DNA from: Candidatus Thorarchaeota archaeon
GTDB lineage: Archaea; Asgardarchaeota; Thorarchaeia; Thorarchaeales; Thorarchaeaceae
NCBI GenBank assembly: GCA_048882485.1
Contig: JBHLRP010000082.1
Coordinates: 1 to 10,763 of the forward strand
Direction of reading: 5' to 3'
DNA length: 10,763 nt
Positions 160 to 10,763 of this stretch are shown here, piece by piece. A model generated the notes under the pieces. The model saw only the letters and a program-made list of their open reading frames with translations. It made no database searches and had not been told where the DNA came from. The position numbers were made by a program, and so were the translations under genes. Positions within the stretch are counted from its first letter, which is position 1, and each line of letters starts with the position of its first letter.

Positions 160-182
160 TTCAAATCCCACCTGGCCCGCCA
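160..182 (+). repeat. tRNA 3'-end-like direct repeat, copy 1 (23/23 to consensus)
   Basis: ttcaaatcccacctggcccgcca, followed by a further CCA and a T-rich tract. Confidence 0.95.
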
Positions 183-220: not shown

Positions 221-874
221 TTACAGACCCATTGCTATGAGGAATACTAGAAATGGGAGATTCACACAATACATGAAGAAGCTACTTGCTGGATGAGTGG
301 TTGGCGTCCTGCAGACCAACCTGGCGTAGTCTGCAATTTCTTCAGTACTTGAAAAGAGAGCCAATGGCTCAAGTCGATGCCTTACATTTTCGATTCTAAT
401 CTGCTTCAACTCATTTTCTTGTCGCATTCTCCAAAACGATGTGGGCAAAACCATGACTGAAAAAAAGAGAGGGCCTAATACCGATGAGTCTAGTCCTGAT
501 GGAGCGAATGCCACCAAGTAGATTGAGATGACGAGAACAATCAGGGGATACAACCAGGGATAAAAGAAATCGTGCATAAAGTACTCACGATATGATGCAA
601 ACCCTGACCTTGCTTCTATTTGACTTGCAGATGATGCAAGGCAGAGCTTGACGCCTGAGTCTAGATCCGTGTCCCTTAATCGAATCTTTAAGATTCCTTC
701 AGCATCAATGAAATAATCACATGAGCGCTTTCTAAGGGAGTCGACCTCTTCAAACTCAATCTCAACCCCCTGCAGTTTAATATCTTTGTACTCCTCTAGC
801 CCCATCTCACGACTCTTGTTGAGGACCATCTCTTCAGATGCAATCTTTAGTTCTCCATCTGAAAGTGCAGTCAC
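221..874 (-). CDS. hypothetical membrane protein (about 3 TM segments in the C-terminal half)
   Basis: 217-aa ORF filling the interval between repeats 1 and 2; hydrophobic stretches; no family recognised. Confidence 0.7.
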   Translation of the reverse strand: MTALSDGELKIASEEMVLNKSREMGLEEYKDIKLQGVEIEFEEVDSLRKRSCDYFIDAEGILKIRLRDTDLDSGVKLCLASSASQIEARSGFASYREYFMHDFFYPWLYPLIVLVISIYLVAFAPSGLDSSVLGPLFFSVMVLPTSFWRMRQENELKQIRIENVRHRLEPLALFSSTEEIADYARLVCRTPTTHPASSFFMYCVNLPFLVFLIAMGL

Positions 875-957: not shown

Positions 958-980
958 TTCAACCCCTACCTGTCCCACCA
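958..980 (+). repeat. tRNA 3'-end-like repeat, copy 2 (18/23)
   Basis: (gg)ttcaacccctacctgtcccacca in an intergenic gap. Confidence 0.8.
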
Positions 981-1019: not shown

Positions 1020-1541
1020 TCATTGATACTTGTACAGTCTTGAATCGACCTTTCTCCATATGCCGGTCTGGTTGCTGAAAGCCTTTCTTTCTTCTTCAGT
1101 TGTGGGCAATATATCAAAAGTACAATTCTCATCGCCACAGGCTTCGCACGTCAGATGAATCAGTTTCGTTTCAGGACTCTCTGCCATGCTCTTAGCTGCA
1201 TCCATATAACAATACAAATAGCCCACATCAGACGCATCCTGCTCTTGGAAAACCTTGGCTAGATTACATCCTCTTGCGAAATAACGTCCCTCTTCGTCTT
1301 GGCCTGAGTCATCATAAACACCGAAAGATGGTAGGTCGGGTAGGCTGCTCTGAACTCTTTTTGCTATTCTCTGACCATAGTCAATGATTGCCTTGGCAAC
1401 CAGATCCTTTCCTCTTTCTTCACTTAGCTCCTGAACTATGGTCTTCGAGAAAGCTATGTGAAGCAGAGCTAGCCTCGAAACCAAGCCCTCAACAGCCCGC
1501 TTTGCTTCTTGCATTGATATAGTATTGAATTGCTCATTCAT
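1020..1541 (-). CDS. L-2-amino-thiazoline-4-carboxylic acid hydrolase-like (ATC hydrolase / V4R-like) protein
   Basis: Motif pattern A..YG.RIA, C.LA..F, GYLYC..D.A and C..GD..C.F typical of this family; GGTGG SD-like motif upstream. Confidence 0.7.
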   Translation of the reverse strand: MNEQFNTISMQEAKRAVEGLVSRLALLHIAFSKTIVQELSEERGKDLVAKAIIDYGQRIAKRVQSSLPDLPSFGVYDDSGQDEEGRYFARGCNLAKVFQEQDASDVGYLYCYMDAAKSMAESPETKLIHLTCEACGDENCTFDILPTTEEERKAFSNQTGIWRKVDSRLYKYQ

Positions 1542-1615: not shown

Positions 1616-1638
1616 TTCAAATCCCACCTGGCCAGCTT
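1616..1638 (+). repeat. tRNA 3'-end-like repeat, copy 3 (20/23)
   Basis: ttcaaatcccacctggccagctt. Confidence 0.92.
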
Positions 1639-1752: not shown

Positions 1753-2481
1753 GTGATGCTTGTCCTAATGGCGATAACGATTGCAATCTATCTCGTGGTA
1801 ATTCTAGGTATCATTCTAATTGTGCGAAGAATCACTCGTCCTCCAGACCAAGAGCTCTTGGCAGGAGTGTCTGTTCGTGTTGCTGCATTTGGTATCGATT
1901 TTGCAATCATAGCAGTTTTCCATGAGATCCTGCTGTCTGTAATAGCCGGATACCCCCCAGTAATTCTGTTTTCTTTTCTCTATATGGGACCATACGCTAT
2001 TTTTTCATTTCCCATAATGATACTAACCGTCATGTTTTCCTATTTGTTCTTCTTTCTCTATCTTCTCTTTCCATATGGGATAATCTACTTTGGGAGTACA
2101 TTCTATATCATGGCAGTTGGCTTCGGGTATTTTCTCTTACTCGAGTCGCTTACTAGAGGAAAGACAGTGGGTAAGGCAATACTGAGAATCAGAACAGTCA
2201 AACGTGATGGCAAGAATCCAATCTCAGTAAGAGAGGGGGTCATGAACGCGCTTGGGAAATCTGTTCTCTTGTGGGACCTAATAATTGGACTAGTGGCACG
2301 TTCTATGCACGCATCTCGCGCGGAACAAAAGCAAATCCGAGCCACGCAGCAGCTTTCAGATGTGGTTGTGGTAAACACGCGCCTCGATAGCACACAACAA
2401 GTCCAGTTTGAGGGACCAGACTGGTGGAAAGAGCAAGACTCCAAAGAATCGGATATTTGGGAGGATGAGAAAGGTGGTTGA
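1753..2481 (+). CDS. RDD family membrane protein
   Basis: LAGVSVRVAAFGIDFAI (RDD signature R..A..ID) and YFLLLES..G.TVGK.IL.IRTV. Confidence 0.85.
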   Translation: MMLVLMAITIAIYLVVILGIILIVRRITRPPDQELLAGVSVRVAAFGIDFAIIAVFHEILLSVIAGYPPVILFSFLYMGPYAIFSFPIMILTVMFSYLFFFLYLLFPYGIIYFGSTFYIMAVGFGYFLLLESLTRGKTVGKAILRIRTVKRDGKNPISVREGVMNALGKSVLLWDLIIGLVARSMHASRAEQKQIRATQQLSDVVVVNTRLDSTQQVQFEGPDWWKEQDSKESDIWEDEKGG

Positions 2482-2497
2482 AGAACGCGGACCCCGT

Positions 2498-3175
2498 TTG
2501 GGAAATGATACGAGAAGAAGATCATTTCTCCTGACGATGTTTGGAGCCATCCAGTCATTTGTCCTGATACCTATTGCCGCACTATGCTATGCTGGTGGGA
2601 CCGAGTCCAACGCGAGTTCTCCCGGATTTTCAATTACTGAGAATTTTCTGAGCGACTTGGGAATGATCACAGCTTATTCAGGTCAGCCAAACCTCGTCTC
2701 ATCACTTCTCTTCAATATAACATTGTTCTTGCTTGGAGCCCTTCTAATTCTCTATTTTCTTACCATGCCCAACTTCTTCAAAGGGCATAAGGAGGCTAAA
2801 TGGCTTAGTATCGCGGGCTCCGCAACTGGAGTTTTCATGGCTGCTACATTCATAGGGGGAAGTCTTACACCTGCAGATATCTTTCGGCCAATTCATCTCA
2901 TGTTTGGCGCAATGGCATTTGCATCCGCACTTCCTGTGGTGATATTCTATACATTGGCAATTCTCTTGGATAGTGATTATCCCAACTGGAATGCGATTGG
3001 ATTTGCACTTTTGGGAGCTGTTATCCTTGTCTATCTGGTTCTTTTGCTGAATGGGGGAGCGTCAGGTGAAATCGCGATTTACTTCACCCTAGGACAGAAG
3101 ATAGTGGTCTTCTCCATCCTTCTATGTTTCTTGATAGAGGCTTATGGTGCATTGCTAGTCACGAAGGAAAGCTAA
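2498..3175 (+). CDS. DUF998-like multi-pass membrane protein (start uncertain: 2465, 2498 or 2537)
   Basis: FS.TENFLSDLG motif, H...G..AF and terminal GQK motifs, about 6 TM helices; the 2408 start overlaps the RDD gene and is unlikely. Confidence 0.7.
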   Translation: MGNDTRRRSFLLTMFGAIQSFVLIPIAALCYAGGTESNASSPGFSITENFLSDLGMITAYSGQPNLVSSLLFNITLFLLGALLILYFLTMPNFFKGHKEAKWLSIAGSATGVFMAATFIGGSLTPADIFRPIHLMFGAMAFASALPVVIFYTLAILLDSDYPNWNAIGFALLGAVILVYLVLLLNGGASGEIAIYFTLGQKIVVFSILLCFLIEAYGALLVTKES

Positions 3176-3198: not shown

Positions 3199-3221
3199 TT
3201 GAAATCCCACCTTGCCCGCCA
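3199..3221 (+). repeat. tRNA 3'-end-like repeat, copy 4 (21/23), preceded by GTGGG complementary to CCCAC
   Basis: gtgggc-ttgaaatcccaccttgcccgcca; nearly intact T-arm hairpin. Confidence 0.92.
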
Positions 3222-3225
3222 TATA

Positions 3226-4194
3226 CTACTCAACCCTCCAGGCATAGTATTGCTGAGTGTATTGTTCTTTGAAACCAAACTTTGTGTACAGACCAATTGC
3301 TGGGTTGCTGCTCTTGTCCGCTTCAAGTGTAGCAATTTTGATTCCATCTTCTTGAAGTCGTTTAAATGACTCATGGAGAACCGATTTCATTATTCCTTGT
3401 CTGTGATGTTTTGGAACAACACCGACAGGGCCAAAGTGTGCACTATCCTCGTTCACTCTAACGACATTGAAACCTACCACTTCATCATCTTTCATTACAA
3501 GAATCGTAGATCTATGAAATGGTTGGCTTCTTCTAAACCAATAATTGAATACGGTCTTTTGTTGGGAACTTGTCAAATCCACGAATGCTCTATCTGATTC
3601 TACTGAAAACGAATCTAAGACTGGTGACTCAAGATCATCATTGGTAACATTATCTATGCTTTCGAAACGGAATCCCTCTGGAAGTGAAGGTTGAGCAGAT
3701 GGTAGTTGATGATTCTGTATATCCACCTGCATGAACACCTCTTCAGTTGTTCTGTAAAGACCAGACTTCTCACACCAAGACTTGTACTCCCTGTAAACCT
3801 CTGCATGTTCTTGTTTAATTGGAATAAGGTTCATTTCGAATCTCCTGAATCCGTTTTCCTTAGCGTAGTCCTTGCAGAACTGAATCATTTCCATTGCAAT
3901 TTCTTCTCTTTTATCACCATAATGGATTCTTGGATGCCAATTTCCTGCTAGGACCATTTCTGGAAATCCAGTAAAGATTCTCAATACTCCTACAATTTTC
4001 CCTTTGGCTGTCGCAATCAAAACTAGTGCATTCTCATTATTCACCATTCTCTGGAATGATTGTTCAAGACTCTCTCTTGTTCGATCCTCTCTGTGAAAGA
4101 CTGTATCTTTTGCAGCTTCGAACATGAATGAAGCCAATTTAGGAATATCCACATCTTTGAATTTGCTAATTGTAATTTCGACCATAGGTATCAC
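3226..4194 (-). CDS. tandem-domain GNAT family N-acetyltransferase (start 4194 GTG or 4185 ATG)
   Basis: C-terminal VGVVPKHHRQGIMK acetyl-CoA motif A and N.PAIGLYTKFGF motif B; second GNAT-like domain in the N-terminal half. Confidence 0.9.
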   Translation of the reverse strand: MIPMVEITISKFKDVDIPKLASFMFEAAKDTVFHREDRTRESLEQSFQRMVNNENALVLIATAKGKIVGVLRIFTGFPEMVLAGNWHPRIHYGDKREEIAMEMIQFCKDYAKENGFRRFEMNLIPIKQEHAEVYREYKSWCEKSGLYRTTEEVFMQVDIQNHQLPSAQPSLPEGFRFESIDNVTNDDLESPVLDSFSVESDRAFVDLTSSQQKTVFNYWFRRSQPFHRSTILVMKDDEVVGFNVVRVNEDSAHFGPVGVVPKHHRQGIMKSVLHESFKRLQEDGIKIATLEADKSSNPAIGLYTKFGFKEQYTQQYYAWRVE

Positions 4195-4241: not shown

Positions 4242-4380
4242 TGAAACTGACTGCACCTAGGTAGATGAATGCAGCTTGAAAAAGTTGGGGTTCACTCACA
4301 ACTTGGAGATAGTATCAAGCCAATGATAGAAGTAACTATATTCCTACGTAATGTCATTGTCTTCAGCATACCATTAGGGG

Positions 4381-4403
4381 TTCGAATCCCACCTGGCCCG
4401 CCA
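4381..4403 (+). repeat. tRNA 3'-end-like repeat, copy 5 (23/23)
   Basis: (gggg)ttcgaatcccacctggcccgcca. Confidence 0.97.
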
Positions 4404-4452: not shown

Positions 4453-5187
4453 ATGATGCATATAGAAACTAGACGCTTGAATGGAGGTTCGCAATTGACC
4501 GGAGACGGTGCAGAGGTTGATGCAGTCCCTGACGAGGTTGCAGCACTAGCCAATCTGTTCCAAGTCTTTGGTGGAGTATTGCTGATTCTTTTCTCTATGT
4601 TGCTTTTCATGACAACCGGTCTCCTGATGAATTGGATAGGAAGGACCTTCTTTGGCGTAGATCTTATACAAGCGCAGTATCCTTCAATATTAGAGATATC
4701 AATCAGCATTGTATTCAGTATCGGTTTGTTCGTTCTGTTTCTAATGGTCATTTTCTGGGCCCTTCCAATCAAGATGCATCAATTGAATGATAGCTTGTTA
4801 CAGGGCACTGGGCTAATTCTTCTTGTTTACCCATTGATGACTGTTAAACAGGTTATTCATTATGATCTGCCCGCAATTTTCACCTTTGGCATAGAAACAC
4901 CCTACTGGTTTGTCTACTCGATTATTGGATTCATTCTGCTTTTGCACCCAATGATGATGAAAAACAATCGTTTGAGGAGAGAGGTTGATTCAATTTTGCT
5001 TGTTTTGCCAGTGGTTCTTAGTATATTGATTGTCATCTTGACTTTTCTACAGATTGCGGAGGTAGTCATTGCTGGGGCGATTTACACGGCTTTTCTAATC
5101 ATCTCCCCCCTCGCTGTGATTTCCTCCACAATCATGCATATTCTACTTCCTGATGAACTTGGTAAGAAGACATTCTCAATGTCCTAA
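4453..5187 (+). CDS. hypothetical multi-pass membrane protein (about 6 TM)
   Basis: 244-aa hydrophobic ORF filling the interval between repeats 5 and 6; the true start may be downstream. Confidence 0.7.
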   Translation: MMHIETRRLNGGSQLTGDGAEVDAVPDEVAALANLFQVFGGVLLILFSMLLFMTTGLLMNWIGRTFFGVDLIQAQYPSILEISISIVFSIGLFVLFLMVIFWALPIKMHQLNDSLLQGTGLILLVYPLMTVKQVIHYDLPAIFTFGIETPYWFVYSIIGFILLLHPMMMKNNRLRREVDSILLVLPVVLSILIVILTFLQIAEVVIAGAIYTAFLIISPLAVISSTIMHILLPDELGKKTFSMS

Positions 5188-5200
5188 AGACCAGATGGAG

Positions 5201-5223
5201 CGAAATTCCCGCCTAGCCCGCCA
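5201..5223 (+). repeat. tRNA 3'-end-like repeat, copy 6 (17/23)
   Basis: cgaaattcccgcctagcccgcca. Confidence 0.8.
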
Positions 5224-5285
5224 TTTCTCTGAATTTTCAGTTTCTCAAGCAACATCTATAGGCTAGTGTGTTTCGAAGTTGGTGC

Positions 5286-5768
5286 ATGAGCCTCTCAATC
5301 AGGAAAGGTCTTAGTTTTGGTCTGACATCTGGAGTCATAACAACACTTGGAATGGTGGTAGGAGTTAATGCGAGCACGAGTTCACGCCTAGCTGTGATCG
5401 CTGGCATTGTTGCGATAGCGATTGCTGATGCATTCTCCGATGCGGTCGCTATGCATGTGTCAGAGGAATCGGAAGGTGGTCATTCCCGACGAGAAGTCAT
5501 GGAGGCAACAACAACAACATTTCTCGCCAAGTTCATATTCGCTATGACATTTGTGCTCCCAATTTGGTACTTGCCACTTGATGTAGCAGTCATGATAGAT
5601 ATTGTCTGGGGACTATCAATTATGACAGTGTTCAATTTTCTGCTAGCACGTTCACAGGATGAAAGCAAATTCAGGGTAATCGTAGAACATTTGGCAATAG
5701 CCATTGTCGTCATTTTGATAACATATATCGTGGGATTATCTCTTTCCACAATTATCTCAGACGCATGA
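5286..5768 (+). CDS. VIT1/CCC1 family transporter-like membrane protein
   Basis: FGLTSGVITTLG..VG and AIAIADAFSDA.AMHVSEES motifs; ATG at 5286 preceded by GGTG. Confidence 0.85.
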   Translation: MSLSIRKGLSFGLTSGVITTLGMVVGVNASTSSRLAVIAGIVAIAIADAFSDAVAMHVSEESEGGHSRREVMEATTTTFLAKFIFAMTFVLPIWYLPLDVAVMIDIVWGLSIMTVFNFLLARSQDESKFRVIVEHLAIAIVVILITYIVGLSLSTIISDA

Positions 5769-5790
5769 AAACCTGTTACCACAAAAACTC

Positions 5791-5813
5791 TTCAAATCCC
5801 ACCTAGCCCGCCA
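5791..5813 (+). repeat. tRNA 3'-end-like repeat, copy 7 (22/23)
   Basis: ttcaaatcccacctagcccgcca. Confidence 0.95.
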
Positions 5814-5827
5814 TCAACTCTCTTTAT

Positions 5828-6481
5828 TCATAAATACCGGCGAACCCGCTTCTTGTATGCACGATAGTCCTCACCAAAACGGTCCTCAAGGAACTTCTCT
5901 TCTAGTAGAATTCTGAAATGTTGATTGACGAGGAATATGACAAGTGCTAGGCCTGTAAGAAGACTCGGGAGAATGAATACCCACCCAATCATCGCAATAT
6001 GTATGCCCAGATAGAGCGGATTTCGAGAGTGAGCATACCACCCATCTGTCATCAGCCTCGTTCCCTCCTCCTCTTCAGGGATGAGCAATCTGATACTGCT
6101 ACCAAGATGGAAGAATGCAGTCAAAAATATCAATGTTCCAATAAACGTCAATCCAGCACCTACAAGCCTCAAGGCCTCCAGTATGCTTGTGTCCAAGGGC
6201 ACCATGATAAAGACAAAGTCGATTGCGATTGCTGGGACCCAGATGTAGAGTACCGTAAGAGCCGTAAGATAGAGAAAACTTAGCAAAGCTAAGGGTATGA
6301 CCACATACCCCCACTTTGGAATATCACTAGGCATTATTCCAACAAAACTCGAAATACCGTCGAGTCTTCTCTTAATTACAATTAATCCAAGGATTGTTGC
6401 GACCAACCAGAATAACGCCAGAGAGATTCTTGCAATCAACGCTCTCCCCAATCTTGGTGGTAGGCCATAGTGCTTATACAT
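5828..6481 (-). CDS. isoprenylcysteine carboxyl methyltransferase / PEMT family membrane protein (probable true start TTG at 6439)
   Basis: L.TDGWYAHSRNPLYLG and RILLEEKFLEDRFGEDYRAYKKRVRRYL signatures; GGGGAG SD before TTG 6439 and TATAAG at 6478-6473. Confidence 0.88.
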   Translation of the reverse strand: MYKHYGLPPRLGRALIARISLALFWLVATILGLIVIKRRLDGISSFVGIMPSDIPKWGYVVIPLALLSFLYLTALTVLYIWVPAIAIDFVFIMVPLDTSILEALRLVGAGLTFIGTLIFLTAFFHLGSSIRLLIPEEEEGTRLMTDGWYAHSRNPLYLGIHIAMIGWVFILPSLLTGLALVIFLVNQHFRILLEEKFLEDRFGEDYRAYKKRVRRYL

Positions 6482-6504
6482 CTAATCATACGCTGTGATC
6501 CAAT

Positions 6505-6527
6505 CTCGAATCTCACTTGGCTCGCCA
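6505..6527 (+). repeat. tRNA 3'-end-like repeat, copy 8 (19/23)
   Basis: ctcgaatctcacttggctcgcca; all mismatches are transitions. Confidence 0.85.
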
Positions 6528-6550
6528 TTCTACTTTGAGCTATGCAGGGC

Positions 6551-7117
6551 TCAAAAACTGTCATTCAAAGGATGGTCATATTTCTCCAAAAACTCTGTCC
6601 TTAGAATGTCCATGATGACAACGTCATGTCGTTCCCCATCGCGGCATCCCAGCTCACGCAGTCTGCCCTGTGACTTGAACCCGATATTCTCATAGAAGCT
6701 GATTGCCCCCTTATTGAATGCTTCAACCCACAGGTAGACACTATGAAGTTCCAACACTGAGAAGGCCATGTTTAGCAAGACCTTCAATGCATCTGCTCCA
6801 TATCCTCTGCCTCTGCGCTCTAAATCAAAGATCGCAAAATGACCAATCTCGCCAAATCGACTAATCCAACTGATGCTTGCAAGACTTATGACTCCTATCA
6901 GCTGATTATCTTCTAGAGTTTCAATCCCAAATGTTATCATGCTGCTATTTTCAAACGCCTCGTTTATACTCTCGATATACCTGACCATGTCTTCGTTGCT
7001 CATAGGAAGGGAAATGGGCAGATACCTATCCAAATCGTAGACATTCCAGTGGGGTAGGATTGTGGGCGCATCGCTCGGATTTAGTTTCCGGAGTCGCACC
7101 ACTTTTCCTTGATACAT
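6551..7117 (-). CDS. RimJ/RimL-type GNAT N-acetyltransferase
   Basis: G..V.LR.L N-terminus; RRGRGYGADAL, N.GAISFYENIGFKSQGRLRE and G.RHDVVIMDILR.EF motifs. Confidence 0.92.
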   Translation of the reverse strand: MYQGKVVRLRKLNPSDAPTILPHWNVYDLDRYLPISLPMSNEDMVRYIESINEAFENSSMITFGIETLEDNQLIGVISLASISWISRFGEIGHFAIFDLERRGRGYGADALKVLLNMAFSVLELHSVYLWVEAFNKGAISFYENIGFKSQGRLRELGCRDGERHDVVIMDILRTEFLEKYDHPLNDSF

Positions 7118-7143
7118 GCGCTATCGCATATACTTCCTAGTGA

Positions 7144-7153
7144 ACGTATTTAA
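7144..7153 (-). promoter_or_regulatory. putative TATA box (TTAAATACGT)
   Basis: About 30 nt upstream of ATG 7117; identical decamer at 8083-8074 upstream of the 8030 gene. Confidence 0.5.
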
Positions 7154-7192
7154 TGGTTATGAATCATGATTCTTAATCATTCAGACTGGCCG

Positions 7193-7215
7193 TCCGAATT
7201 CCAATTGGCCCGCAA
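7193..7215 (+). repeat. tRNA 3'-end-like repeat, copy 9 (18/23)
   Basis: tccgaattccaattggcccgcaa. Confidence 0.8.
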
Positions 7216-7225
7216 TCTAATTCTC

Positions 7226-7606
7226 TCAGGTCTGGTTCTGTGCCAAGAATGAAGAAACATCCACTTGGGAGGGATCCTCTATCTTTAGTAGAGCCATGAG
7301 GAGACTATGAACGAATATCTCACTCATCCCAAATGTTGGGCATATTACGAAGACCTCAGAGCCTTCAAGATTTGAATCAATCCAGAACATAGCTGTCAAT
7401 AATAGAGGCTCTGGTTTAAACAGCAGCTCCCACTCCCATATTATTAGATGCCTACCATCTATACGACGATTGACCTTGGATTTCATTGTAAGTCGTGAAT
7501 TCCATGATCGGCCTCTGACTTTATTCCAATGAATTGGAACACTGACAAGGTTCCGGTCAATTTGATCCAAATCGACGTCTTTGAGTGTAAGTGATATCAT
7601 ACGCAA
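7226..7606 (-). CDS. hypothetical protein (ATG 7600 is an alternative start)
   Basis: 126-aa ORF fitting neatly between repeats 9 and 10; no family recognised. Confidence 0.55.
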   Translation of the reverse strand: MRMISLTLKDVDLDQIDRNLVSVPIHWNKVRGRSWNSRLTMKSKVNRRIDGRHLIIWEWELLFKPEPLLLTAMFWIDSNLEGSEVFVICPTFGMSEIFVHSLLMALLKIEDPSQVDVSSFLAQNQT

Positions 7607-7661
7607 ATTGGAGTCAGACTATGCAGAGATAAGGGTTAGCACGAACATCACCTTGATACGG

Positions 7662-7684
7662 TTCGAATCCCACCTGGCCCGCCA
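7662..7684 (+). repeat. tRNA 3'-end-like repeat, copy 10 (23/23)
   Basis: (gg)ttcgaatcccacctggcccgcca. Confidence 0.97.
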
Positions 7685-7802
7685 ACTTCTTCTAATTATG
7701 CCTCATCTAGCAAAAAGAGATAGGGAGTTTCCCAAAGATGCTCCCTTTATCGAATTGTACTTCAAAAATGCTCAGAACAATCAATCTTGGCTGGGCTGGA
7801 AT

Positions 7803-8030
7803 CTAGTCCGCATTACGCATCGTGGTGTAGGCATCGATGATACGCCACAATCCATGCACAACTACGAACGCTAGCACACTCCATGTTATCATATTCGCAT
7901 AAGTGCTTGTTGTAAATAGTGTGCCACCAATTTCGTATATGTATGGAATCACAGCAAAAATCAGGATAATTTCCAAAATTCCCATGATTAGTTGACCTAC
8001 AAAACGTGGTTTTGCTACTCCTTTCTTCAT
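7803..8030 (-). CDS. small two-TM membrane protein
   Basis: 75 aa with two hydrophobic helices; strong SD GGGGAGGT (8048-8041) and TATA-like box upstream. Confidence 0.75.
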   Translation of the reverse strand: MKKGVAKPRFVGQLIMGILEIILIFAVIPYIYEIGGTLFTTSTYANMITWSVLAFVVVHGLWRIIDAYTTMRNAD

Positions 8031-8073
8031 TTTTCCGAAGACCTCCCCTTAGGGTGTGTATTCGTTCATTAAC

Positions 8074-8083
8074 ACGTATTTAA
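8074..8083 (-). promoter_or_regulatory. putative TATA box (TTAAATACGT)
   Basis: Upstream of the SD and ATG of the 8030 gene; same decamer as 7153-7144. Confidence 0.5.
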
Positions 8084-8110
8084 CTGGTATCTCTGCTTTG
8101 ACTATTTGCT

Positions 8111-8133
8111 CAAAAATCCTACCTAGCCCTCCA
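8111..8133 (+). repeat. tRNA 3'-end-like repeat, copy 11 (17/23)
   Basis: caaaaatcctacctagccctcca. Confidence 0.75.
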
Positions 8134-8240
8134 TCAAATCTCGATTCTCATAGATACGATTTCAATAATCAAACTAGACACCATTCTGTTTGAATCCCCT
8201 TTCTACTCCTAGAATTCGAGTATCAATCTGGCTGGCCATC

Positions 8241-9215
8241 TTATTTGGGAATCTTGCTTAGCCTTAAGATTACTTCTTCGGCCTCACTCATCACTCTGTC
8301 CAGCAGTTCCTTGACCGTGGGAATATCCTTGACCAGGCCTACACCTTGACCACAGGCGACAACCCCATGGTCGATATCCCCTTCTCTGTACATTTCCTCT
8401 GATTTGTCACCAGATGCAGCCTGAATGAGTTGGAAAAGAGGGGCTCCCTGCGCCTCTAGTTCAAGCACTTTCTGTACTGCTTTATTCTTCCAGAACCTGT
8501 GTGTATTTCCAACAGAACGCAAGGCGAGAGTTGTATCGGTTTCCGCTGCTTCGACGAAGGCCTTTTTGAGATTGTCATGGATGGGACACTCTCTAGTAGC
8601 CAACAGTCTTGTGCCCATAATCACTCCTTCAGCACCAAGTGCCAGAGCCGCTGCGATACCTCTTCCATCTGTTATTCCGCCCCCAGCAATTACAGGAACA
8701 TCCAGGGCATCAACGACGGATGGAGTCATCACCATTGTTCCAATGTCTAGAATCCCAGTAGCTCCACCATTCTCATATCCAACAACGGTCACTATGTCGG
8801 CACCCAAGGACGCTCCTTTCTTCGCATATCTCACTCCGGCGCACTTATGAATCCAGATGGCACCTCCATCCCTAAATTTGGGGACCAAGTCCTCTGGCGC
8901 CTTATGGCCGCTCGTTTCAATGATTTTCACACCCTCAGCTAGTGTGGCATCCACGTAGTCCTCCAGCTTGTCCTGAGGCATCAGAGCAGGAAACAGATTG
9001 ATGTTCACCGCAAATGGGCGATCTGTAAGAGATTGGGTCTTTTTGATAGCATCACGCAGGTCATCAGGTGTCTTGAAGTTCGCACTGGCTAAAACTGCAC
9101 AGGCACCAGCATTACTTGCTGCGGCGGTGAATTCGGGACTAGAAATCCTTGCCATGGTCCCTGCTATGATTGGATACTTACACCCCAACATCTCAGTTAC
9201 TTTCGTCTTTATCAT
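8241..9215 (-). CDS. nitronate monooxygenase / enoyl-ACP reductase FabK-like flavoprotein
   Basis: KT..TEMLG.KYPII.G.M, AASNAG, T.RPFAVN, G.E.GG, PVIAGGGITDGRGIAAALALGAEGVIMGTR and CGQGVGLVKDIPTVKEL; SD GGGTGAGG at 9227-9220. Confidence 0.93.
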   Translation of the reverse strand: MIKTKVTEMLGCKYPIIAGTMARISSPEFTAAASNAGACAVLASANFKTPDDLRDAIKKTQSLTDRPFAVNINLFPALMPQDKLEDYVDATLAEGVKIIETSGHKAPEDLVPKFRDGGAIWIHKCAGVRYAKKGASLGADIVTVVGYENGGATGILDIGTMVMTPSVVDALDVPVIAGGGITDGRGIAAALALGAEGVIMGTRLLATRECPIHDNLKKAFVEAAETDTTLALRSVGNTHRFWKNKAVQKVLELEAQGAPLFQLIQAASGDKSEEMYREGDIDHGVVACGQGVGLVKDIPTVKELLDRVMSEAEEVILRLSKIPK

Positions 9216-9317: not shown

Positions 9318-9340
9318 TTCGAATCTCACTCAGCCCGTCA
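9318..9340 (+). repeat. tRNA 3'-end-like repeat, copy 12 (18/23)
   Basis: (g)ttcgaatctcactcagcccgtca. Confidence 0.82.
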
Positions 9341-9350
9341 ACCTTGTTTT

Positions 9351-9851
9351 CTACTCTCTATTGAAAAGGTACCTTAGCGTAGCTACTCGATGTCGTAGCT
9401 TTGATAGCAACACGTACGTGTACGGTACTACCAGAGCTTCCACTTCTTCAGAATATTCAATGTCTTCATAATCACTACTACCTTTAGCTGGTTTCTGATT
9501 TCGGGTGTTACATCCCCTAGCTATTCCCTTCAAACTGAGAAAGATGGTCTGAGTTTCTTCTATTTGAGAGGGGGCATCATGACTATTACGACAGAATACA
9601 AGAACATCAAAGATGGAGAGCCCAAGGTAGACTTCTGTTATACACATCAAATCAAAACCCAAAGTGATTGCTGATGCAATCATGAATGGGAGAAGAGATA
9701 CTATGAAAAGCTGATGTCTAATAATGGGATGCCTATTCTTCTCAAAATGTTCAGCTGAGTGATCACGAGGCCAATCAGATACTCCCACATCTGTGATATC
9801 CAACCAATCTAGCGCCTGCGAGCCATAGTTTCGATTCTTTCTGGCCATCAA
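9351..9851 (-). CDS. hypothetical membrane protein, possibly decaying or frameshifted
   Basis: 166-aa ORF filling the interval between repeats 12 and 13; one or two hydrophobic segments; central part looks less protein-like. Confidence 0.45.
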   Translation of the reverse strand: MMARKNRNYGSQALDWLDITDVGVSDWPRDHSAEHFEKNRHPIIRHQLFIVSLLPFMIASAITLGFDLMCITEVYLGLSIFDVLVFCRNSHDAPSQIEETQTIFLSLKGIARGCNTRNQKPAKGSSDYEDIEYSEEVEALVVPYTYVLLSKLRHRVATLRYLFNRE

Positions 9852-9946
9852 CGGTGATCAAATCCTTGTTCTCAGGATTGATTCTTGGTGACACTCCAGC
9901 CATAAATTGCATCATAGTTCAACTAATGAACTAGTAACAGTATTTT

Positions 9947-9969
9947 TTCGAATCCTGCCCCGTGTGTCA
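9947..9969 (+). repeat. tRNA 3'-end-like repeat, copy 13 (15/23, highly degenerate)
   Basis: ttcgaatcctgccccgtgtgtca; lies in the expected intergenic position, last 3 nt overlap the nfi stop codon. Confidence 0.55.
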
Positions 9970-10608
9970 ATCCTGCCCTCTCAATGCTAAGCTTTTCGCA
10001 GTTCTATGAGCAATGCGAAGAGGTTCAGGATATCCATCAACATAGCAATCTTTCACAATCTTCACAGAAGTAGAGAGCGTGATGTTATTCCCCACCGATA
10101 CGAACACAGGCTTCACTTTTCCCAGCCAGACAGCCATGCCTATAAGTTCATCTTCGTCGCGGATGGTGGCCTCATCACCATCGCGAAGGCCCATGGTACC
10201 AATATGAAGGCTCTTTGCAACGCCAATAGTCTGAGTATTCGAAACCACGCCAACATACGATGCCAGACCTAGTCTTCTGGGATGAAGCACTCCATTTCCG
10301 TCGATAAGCACAGGTCCTGTGACATCCAAGAGTTTCAGAAGGTCAAGTACGATGGGCCCTTCTCGAAGATAGAGATATCCTGGGATGTAGTCAAACTGCA
10401 CTTCTCTATCCAAGGTCACAGTTTGAACTGGCCTCAGTGTTTCAACGTCTATTACAACTGCACACCCAAATGCGAGAAAGCCATGATAGTGTACATCCAC
10501 TCCTGTCACTATGCCCCTATCGTAGGGCGGCAAGTCTTTCTTGACAACCCGTTTTGCAAGATCTACTTGTTCTCTGGACGCATTTTTCAGCTTCGTTTGA
10601 TTATCCAT
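9967..10608 (-). CDS. nfi: endonuclease V (deoxyinosine 3'-endonuclease); ATG 10608 preferred over TTG 10662
   Basis: GVDV.Y, YIPGYLYLREGP, VLIDGNGVLHPRRLGLASYVG, TIGVAKS, PVFVSVG and PEPLRIAH motifs with the catalytic D/E/D/H residues present. Confidence 0.95.
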   Translation of the reverse strand: MDNQTKLKNASREQVDLAKRVVKKDLPPYDRGIVTGVDVHYHGFLAFGCAVVIDVETLRPVQTVTLDREVQFDYIPGYLYLREGPIVLDLLKLLDVTGPVLIDGNGVLHPRRLGLASYVGVVSNTQTIGVAKSLHIGTMGLRDGDEATIRDEDELIGMAVWLGKVKPVFVSVGNNITLSTSVKIVKDCYVDGYPEPLRIAHRTAKSLALRGQD

Positions 10609-10763
10609 AATGTATGATTCCACAAGGGGGTCATTTCGGAACCTGATGAACCTGCTGTTCAATCAAATTGACGACTAATAGGAGGACACAATCCAGTCAT
10701 CCTGTGGGACTAGGGACGTACCCTCTGTGTAATCTGTGTGATATACCCCTCCTTGTACATCAC

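Follow-up and report, generated by a model that had tools for sequence, protein, structure and literature searches.

The stretch of DNA examined here (10,763 nt; hereafter the window) is the entire contig C82 of a Thorarchaeota MAG from the Asgard archaea, referred to as G000 (3.96 Mb, 157 contigs, 90.5% complete), and it carries small gene cassettes bracketed by copies of a single tRNA 3′ end, i.e., tails (Table 1). The other G numbers denote genomes of the same genus (17 genus genomes were compared), and the L numbers denote compared contigs, including those from metagenomes. The end of contig C103 coincides with the start of the window over an exact 77-nt overlap, and contigs C144 and C106 attach to the outer ends by like overlaps, giving a joined scaffold of 25.8 kb. 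At every one of these contig breaks, at the window ends and at C103, C106 and C144, the overlap is exact over 77 nt and leads to one partner only. The assembler halted inside the array, which may reflect differences in cassette order among coexisting strains.

On this scaffold, an intact tRNA-Lys gene points left, inverted relative to the copies, and an array of 14 right-pointing tails starts 3.6 kb to its right. The 14 tails, two of which lie on C103, bracket 13 cassettes of one or two genes, such that nearly every gene is bracketed. The cassette units measure 0.45–1.6 kb, resulting in 14 junctions within about 10.6 kb. The genes fit tightly between the tails and are found on both strands, whereas the tails are found on one. 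Cassettes 1–7 encode, in order, a GNAT acetyltransferase (214 aa), a SAM methyltransferase, a 217-aa ORF, an ATC_hydrolase, RDD plus Frag1-like proteins, a GNAT (322 aa) and a 244-aa ORF; cassettes 8–13 encode VIT1, a PEMT/ICMT methyltransferase, a GNAT (188 aa), a 126-aa ORF, a 75-aa ORF and a nitronate monooxygenase (NMO). The NMO cassette is followed by a 166-aa ORF and then by endonuclease V. NCBIfam and PHROGs searches of the unnamed ORFs gave no match, and no mobile-element hallmark gene was seen among the examined cassette genes. At 9945–9967, beside the endonuclease V stop codon, a further stretch resembles a tail in highly degenerate form (it reads TTCGAATCC and diverges thereafter); together with the tail at 9318–9340, it would bracket the 166-aa ORF.

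Two further features surround the intact tRNA-Lys gene. Downstream of it lies a block of ~4 kb, missing from G005, with a radical SAM/SPASM gene and an endonuclease/exonuclease/phosphatase-family gene; no clear closing tail of this block was found, the only candidate being a single marginal match of 9.6 bits. Upstream of it, at a distance of 2.7 kb, the tRNA-Lys promoter box (CCGAAACCTCTATAACCGA) occurs again together with tRNA nt 1–11, and the two promoter copies bound an insert that encodes a protein kinase and has a 493-aa ORF with no family match. This duplicated promoter with nt 1–11 is the 5′-side counterpart of the 3′ tails.

Table 1. Features of the window, listed in order, and of the other contigs named in the text. 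The last position of each of the 12 window tails is its CCA end.
Feature	Position	Strand	Remarks
Tail copy T54–A76, perfect, A57	160..182	+	46.9 bits
217-aa cassette gene, no family match	221..874	-	homologous cassette in G002:C304, G014:C248
Degenerate tail copy	958..980	+	25.2 bits
ATC_hydrolase-family cassette gene	1020..1541	-	
Degenerate tail copy, CCA lost	1616..1638	+	25.8 bits
Two-gene cassette, RDD-family and Frag1-like membrane proteins	1753..3175	+	Pfam scores just under curated cut-offs
Older tail copy, 2 mismatches	3199..3221	+	39.1 bits; GTGGG T-stem 5′ strand still upstream
GNAT acetyltransferase, 322 aa, single-gene cassette	3226..4194	-	
Perfect tail copy, G57, GGGG in front	4381..4403	+	52.4 bits; copy of the preliminary description
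244-aa single-gene cassette, no family match	4453..5187	+	
Degenerate tail copy	5201..5223	+	24.6 bits
VIT1-family single-gene cassette	5268..5768	+	same cassette in G002, G011, G014, G020
Tail copy, 1 mismatch	5791..5813	+	43.3 bits
PEMT/ICMT-type membrane methyltransferase, single-gene cassette	5828..6481	-	
Degenerate tail copy	6505..6527	+	27.7 bits
GNAT, 188 aa, single-gene cassette	6551..7117	-	in G015, G002, G011, G014 beside other neighbours
Degenerate tail copy	7193..7215	+	23.9 bits
126-aa cassette gene	7226..7606	-	missing from G011
Perfect tail copy, G57	7662..7684	+	49.3 bits
75-aa cassette ORF, no family match	7803..8030	-	missing from G011
Degenerate tail copy	8111..8133	+	23.6 bits
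Nitronate monooxygenase (NMO) cassette	8241..9215	-	most widely kept cassette
Last clear tail copy, degenerate	9318..9340	+	21.8 bits
166-aa ORF	9351..9851	-	missing from G011
Endonuclease V	9967..10662	-	syntenic flank in relatives
Tail copies on C103 (n = 2)	C103, CCA ends 4898 and 5503		
Parent tRNA-Lys(CUU) gene	C103, 1175..1281	complement	Rfam tRNA score 58.4 bits
Second promoter box and tRNA nt 1–11	L009 (G000:C103), ~3962–4013	complement	
Endonuclease/exonuclease/phosphatase-family gene	C103, 119–1120		
Radical SAM/SPASM gene	L059 (G000:C144), 252–1601	complement	
TnpB/Cas12f-like genes	L040 (G001:C5), 5719–7872; L053 (G006:C149), 4499–6544		also L064, L074 (G003)
HNH endonuclease, 190 aa	L045 (G002:C119), 7854–8426	complement	
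Intron-bearing tRNA-Lys genes	L042 (G005:C88), 6369–6590; L045 (G002:C119), 7368–7590		also L047, L053, L056, L076, L082
tRNA-Ala with 53/54 intron	G000:C71, ~1300–1395		
Extra tails of other tRNAs	G000 contigs C71, C132, C20, C63, C6, C58		Ala 5, Leu 2, Phe 1, His 1, Ser 1

The repeated tail and its parent tRNA

At window positions 4377–4403, leading Gs (GGGG) are followed by a T-loop (TTCGAAT, positions 54–60), the 3′ strand of a T-stem (CCCAC, 61–65), the 3′ strand of an acceptor stem (CTGGCCC, 66–72), G73 and CCA. A preliminary description of this DNA had parsed the repeat in this way, as the 3′ end (positions 54–76) of a tRNA, and the parse is borne out by the parent tRNA that was found. 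The 25-mer at 4379–4403, with R at position 57, gave five plus-strand matches with ≤ 3 mismatches, starting at 158, 3197, 4379, 5789 and 7660, and no match in 200 dinucleotide shuffles. The copies at 4379 and 7660 are identical and both carry G57, and the copy at 158 carries A57. Since the latter differs from T54 onward at this position only, the proposed R57 variation among otherwise perfect copies holds. An alignment of the flanks showed that conservation stops outside T54–A76. A weight matrix made from 52 tails of the genus, for which the shuffle maximum is 7.4 bits, detected 12 tail copies in the window, all on the plus strand, with scores of 21.8–52.4 bits; the earlier count of five was therefore too low. 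The information content of the matrix goes up at T54 and down after A76, and the 5′ arm of the T-stem is weakly kept in the copies, at 0.3–0.4 bits per position. No tRNA gene was found inside the window by ARAGORN or Rfam.

The parent is the intact tRNA-Lys(CUU) gene on C103. Its acceptor 5′ strand is GGGCCAG, its T-stem is GTGGG/CCCAC, its discriminator base is G73, its CCA is encoded, and its anticodon loop is CUCUUAA, corresponding to Lys(CUU). The gene has an insert of ~31 nt in the variable region, i.e., an intron, and ARAGORN miscalled the unspliced gene as Gly; upon removal of the insert, ARAGORN called tRNA-Lys(ctt) in all plausible splice registers. The copy at 4381–4403 matches positions 54–76 of the parent at 22/23 positions, the difference being A57 in the parent vs. 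G57 in the copy, and the A57 copies match the parent tail at 23/23; G57 alleles of the tRNA-Lys gene are present in relatives. No second tRNA in G000 was found with the same tail. The repeat is thus the last 23 bases of the host tRNA-Lys gene. From the repeat alone, a tRNA beginning GGGCYRG, with GTGGG as the 5′ strand of its T-stem and probably charged with Lys or Arg, had been predicted, along with a near-exact match of the tail to a single host tRNA. As GGGCCAG, GTGGG and a Lys anticodon are all found in the C103 gene, the one gene of G000 that ends in this way, these predictions all came true, and the claim that the parent tRNA can be read from the repeat stands on firm ground. That the parent lies outside the window in inverted orientation, and that the copies are the boundaries of integrase-less cassettes, had not been foreseen.

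Cassette order among relatives and tails of other tRNAs

A BLASTN comparison of the joined locus with contigs of the same genus revealed the same cassettes, at 66–97% identity, in arrangements that differ from that of G000, and the homology ends at the tails. The order is RDD-end, 217 aa, VIT1, GNAT188 in G002:C304, where the end of the RDD/Frag1-like cassette is located ahead of another neighbour; VIT1, PEMT, GNAT188, NMO in G011:C29, which lacks the 126-aa and 75-aa cassettes between flanks of 91–92% identity; and GNAT214, an unrelated 0.5-kb unit, GNAT188, NMO in G015:C47. Metagenome contig L079 has methyltransferase, GNAT214, 217 aa, whereas G000 has GNAT214, methyltransferase, 217 aa; L079 and G000 are 95–97% identical in the two swapped cassettes and 80% identical in the third (217 aa). 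The unit directly behind the intact tRNA-Lys varies as well, being the GNAT214 or methyltransferase cassette in G011 and G009, the NMO cassette in metagenome contig L082 and a truncated NMO remnant in G004.

At each boundary, the sequence left of the tail moves with the preceding cassette, and the sequence right of the CCA moves with the following cassette. As in integrons, cassettes are thus shuffled between relatives. Because tail copies fence modules of one or two genes whose orders differ in relatives, the locus is an integron-like gene-swapping site. Perfect tails are found beside variable cassettes and decayed tails beside the widely kept NMO cassette, a pattern which fits sites that were made at insertion and drifted later. 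An attempt to map the crossover point from the degenerate tails at the 126-aa/75-aa indel was abandoned, these tails being too diverged. Moreover, variants within the tail go together with neither the preceding nor the following cassette, and hence do not reveal a fixed crossover point.

An intact tRNA-Lys heads the co-oriented array in G011, G009, G007 and G013. In G002, the head copy is reduced to the part from anticodon to CCA and faces a second, intact, divergent tRNA-Lys, and G005 and G000 retain nothing of the head copy beyond its tail, such that the array head in G000 is without an intact co-oriented tRNA. By such steps, the head tRNA-Lys was probably pared down to its tail.

The tails are not limited to tRNA-Lys. 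Extra tails of tRNA-Ala, Leu, Phe, His and Ser occur in G000, each running from T54 (± 1–3 nt) to CCA, so that the phenomenon is genome-wide in G000. The cassettes at these tails are small and likewise carry genes of the ordinary enzyme type, encoding NosD-like, luciferase-like monooxygenase, GNAT, LVIVD, Staygreen and PNPOx proteins. Arrays with Lys tails are found in most of the 17 genus genomes as well as in other families of the phylum, and the exact tail was found in Thorarchaeota/Promethearchaeota MAGs, one Hermodarchaeota, two entries labelled ‘uncultured archaeon’ and one chance bacterial match.

The tRNA-Lys(CUU) genes of relatives contain up to four introns, i.e., in the D-loop, anticodon stem, variable region and T-arm, and such intron-rich tRNA genes are missed by ARAGORN. 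A recurrent intron lies exactly between G53 and T54, which is the start point of all tails, and a tRNA-Ala of G000 also has an intron at 53/54. The idea that this intron shields the gene against insertion is not supported as a rule. Among the contigs examined, co-oriented tails are located behind 0/7 tRNA-Lys genes with the 53/54 intron and 5/7 without it, counts which comprise orthologous groups rather than independent cases and include G011 and G009 contigs that end within the first cassette. Counter to the shield idea, the intron-bearing tRNA-Ala of G000 is followed by two co-oriented tails. A retro-origin of the tails from mature tRNA, considered on account of the CCA and of A/G57 as a trace of inosine, was also rejected, because all tRNA genes of G000 encode CCA, G57 gene alleles exist in relatives, and the longer partial copy in G002 has retained two introns.

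Possible modes of cassette entry

The tails are probably junctions from the serial, Campbell-type insertion of cassettes without an integrase at the tail of tRNA-Lys(CUU), and from their reshuffling. This reading starts from the identity of the repeat and its parent, the bracketing of the genes, the sharing and reordering of cassettes with breaks at tails, the T54-to-CCA rule at five other tRNAs and the absence of a local recombinase gene. Each tail copy would be a recombination junction, and modules of one or two genes would enter one by one via a crossover inside the 54–76 segment. Each entry would add one tail copy, as the incoming DNA would restore the tRNA end and push the old end downstream. 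In this way, at least 13 cassettes, none with an integrase, would have piled up along some 10.6 kb. The tRNA at their head would later have lost its 5′ part, with the second, inverted tRNA-Lys 3.6 kb away supplying its function. Recombination between tails would delete, insert and reorder cassettes, so that related strains would hold different cassette sets.

A block of identity from T-loop to tRNA 3′ end is the classical signature of the T-loop-type att sites of tyrosine integrases, a class of tRNA sites reportedly set out by Williams in 2002. As at such sites, the repeat is the 3′ end of a host tRNA and the identity runs from the T-loop to the tRNA end, with the same limits at Ala, Leu, Phe, His and Ser; no integrase gene was found within the inserted DNA beside the att site. 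Tyrosine and serine recombinase genes (PF00589, PF00239) were found neither at the locus nor in the 90.5%-complete G000. PF00589 occurs in 4/17 genus genomes, with five genes in total, and none of the five lies closer than about 10 kb to a tRNA or tail. The 17 genus MAGs, 13 metagenome contigs and IMG/VR were also searched for a helper element whose cognate integrase would act at the same att site, and none was found. A viral or plasmid attP was rejected, the exact tail being absent from IMG/VR viral contigs; a looser 18-mer gave only chance matches in unrelated contigs, five of 57–64% G+C and two of 33% G+C. An attC-like or mini-helix fold was likewise sought in 12 tail regions folded as DNA, and none was found (z − 1.3 to + 1.1). 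The missing recombinase and hallmark genes, the absence of the tail from IMG/VR, the weak conservation of the 5′ T-stem arm that would make up the other half of a symmetric core site, the tail variants unlinked to either cassette and the lack of an intact co-oriented head tRNA all speak against the tails being insertion junctions. However, MAGs often lose plasmids and viruses, and the absence of a recombinase is therefore weak evidence. We tentatively infer a crossover by a site-specific recombinase acting in trans, from a helper element or from a gene unassembled in these MAGs, over nuclease-triggered or plain homologous recombination.

A nuclease might also build such an array. If a TnpB/Cas12f-like or HNH enzyme cut tRNA-Lys, repair would copy the donor allele with its cargo and an additional piece of tRNA by which the gene stays complete, and repeated rounds would stack cassettes and tails without an integrase. 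A 717-aa TnpB/Cas12f-like gene (Pfam OrfB_IS605 + TNB) is convergent with the intact tRNA-Lys in G001:C5 and G006:C149, and in G006 the element lies between a tRNA-Lys stub (promoter plus GGGC) and nt 5–20. The 16 nt past the conserved 3′ scaffold of the TnpB-like element, which ends in AATGARCGRC, resemble tRNA-Lys positions 5–20 with 2–5 mismatches, the resident allele being the worst match, and related copies in G003 adjoin tRNA-His and tRNA-Ser with similar guide-like stretches. Such a process is also suggested by the duplicated promoter and tRNA-Lys nt 1–11 around the 2.7-kb insert on C103, and by an HNH gene in G002 located between the intact tRNA-Lys and a divergent 5′-truncated copy, still with two introns. 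However, the tRNA-Lys-linked TnpB-like gene occurs in only 2/17 genus genomes, the copy of G000 itself (C50) is not beside a tRNA, and the HNH gene is confined to G002 (1/17 genus genomes), for which reason the HNH endonuclease was rejected as a general driver. Furthermore, the guide-like stretches aim at the D-arm or anticodon region rather than at 53/54, the cargo consists of intact cellular-type enzymes instead of decayed nuclease genes, and the cleavage is predicted. We regard nuclease-driven homing of this kind as unlikely.

Host homologous recombination alone, by which RadA-dependent exchange between the 23-nt tails would loop out cassettes as circles that re-insert at any tail, is a distinctly improbable source of the array. 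It is able to reshuffle cassettes and would account for the lack of a dedicated enzyme, for tail variants unlinked to their neighbours, as expected if exchange occurs anywhere in the repeat, and for perfect tails deep in the array, such that any tail can be a target. However, it leaves unexplained both the first acquisition of a tail by a new gene and the T54 start in six different tRNAs, and a 23-nt repeat is short for homologous exchange to be efficient. The copies might instead be functional pieces of RNA, serving as the 3′ exon or 3′ half of a split tRNA gene or, in tRNA-like form, as 3′ processing signals of adjacent genes, and the intron of relatives at exactly 53/54 does make T54–A76 a real 3′ exon there. 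This is hardly credible for the array, in which the copies have no conserved leader or complementary flank upstream, fold no better than chance over the z range given above, have no Rfam or ARAGORN match, are decayed in half of the cases, and lie on one strand beside neighbour genes on both. Split-tRNA 3′ halves in particular were rejected, given no leader, no matching structure and many decayed copies.

Comparison with known systems

Reading the tails as insertion junctions places the locus close to the tandem accretion of integrative elements that She and colleagues are said to have described in 2001 as gene capture in archaeal chromosomes. As in that case and at T-loop att sites, the direct repeat runs from T-loop to tRNA 3′ end, copies mark successive insertions, and the incoming copy restores the tRNA. 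Unlike tandem accretion, no unit here contains an integrase or a fragment of one; the units are 0.45–1.6 kb with one or two ordinary enzyme genes, 14 junctions fall in about 10.6 kb, the tRNA at the head has been truncated, and the working copy has the opposite orientation. The CIMEs of streptococcal ICE/IME systems are cis-mobilisable and thought to be moved by the integrase of a helper. Like CIMEs, the cassettes are att-bounded units without recombination genes of their own, stacked at one site, whereas the host here is archaeal, the cassettes are far smaller, and no helper with a cognate integrase was found in the 17 genus genomes. The tRNA islands of Prochlorococcus remodelled by tycheposons are similar in being islands of flexible genes by tRNA genes, where partial tRNA repeats occur along with units consisting of cargo only; the recombinase and replication genes that tycheposons themselves encode were not seen at this locus.

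Archaeal integrons, reportedly described by Ghaly and colleagues in 2022, invite a further comparison. Like integron arrays and CALINs, the locus holds mostly single-gene cassettes, often for GNATs and methyltransferases, that are reshuffled between relatives. Unlike integrons, it has no IntI beside the array, its sites are 23-nt tRNA tails without attC-like structure, and its genes cannot depend on one array promoter because they point both ways. Thus, the locus combines the att logic of tRNA accretion with the cassette behaviour of integrons, and lacks the integrase, the IntI and the attC that would place it in either class. In Caldiarchaeum subterraneum, a tRNA gene is disrupted by a mobile element, with an insert that encodes a recombinase and a leftover 5′ fragment (Sugahara et al. 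2012, PMC3293823). That locus and the present one share tRNA fragments, intron gain, population heterogeneity at one tRNA locus and insertion of foreign DNA, whereas many 3′ tails and no recombinase are found here. In the literature searched, no account was found of Asgard archaea with cassette arrays of this density that are built on tRNA tails and lack an integrase.

A bolder proposal, which we hold to be doubtful at present, is that Thorarchaeota have a genome-wide, integrase-independent cassette system with any tRNA gene as a dock. Entry at 53/54 with a spare T54–CCA tail would then also yield 53/54 introns, as shrunken, spliceable inserts, and scattered tRNA fragments. If true, gene capture would be linked to the way in which non-canonical archaeal tRNA introns arose.

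No known organisms are more closely related to eukaryotes than the Asgard archaea, whose gene gain and swapping are poorly understood. The locus described here is a dense and orderly gene-exchange site on a tRNA tail with no recombinase gene nearby, it differs at the level of cassettes even between populations of 95–97% identity, and one tail rule applies at six tRNAs in one genome. The identity between the repeat and its parent tRNA provides an anchor for work on this exchange. As the cassette junction is also a recurrent non-canonical intron position (53/54), the origin of such introns becomes testable. Should the responsible enzyme prove new, or should an RNA-guided nuclease and subsequent repair be responsible, the array would represent a new route of gene capture.
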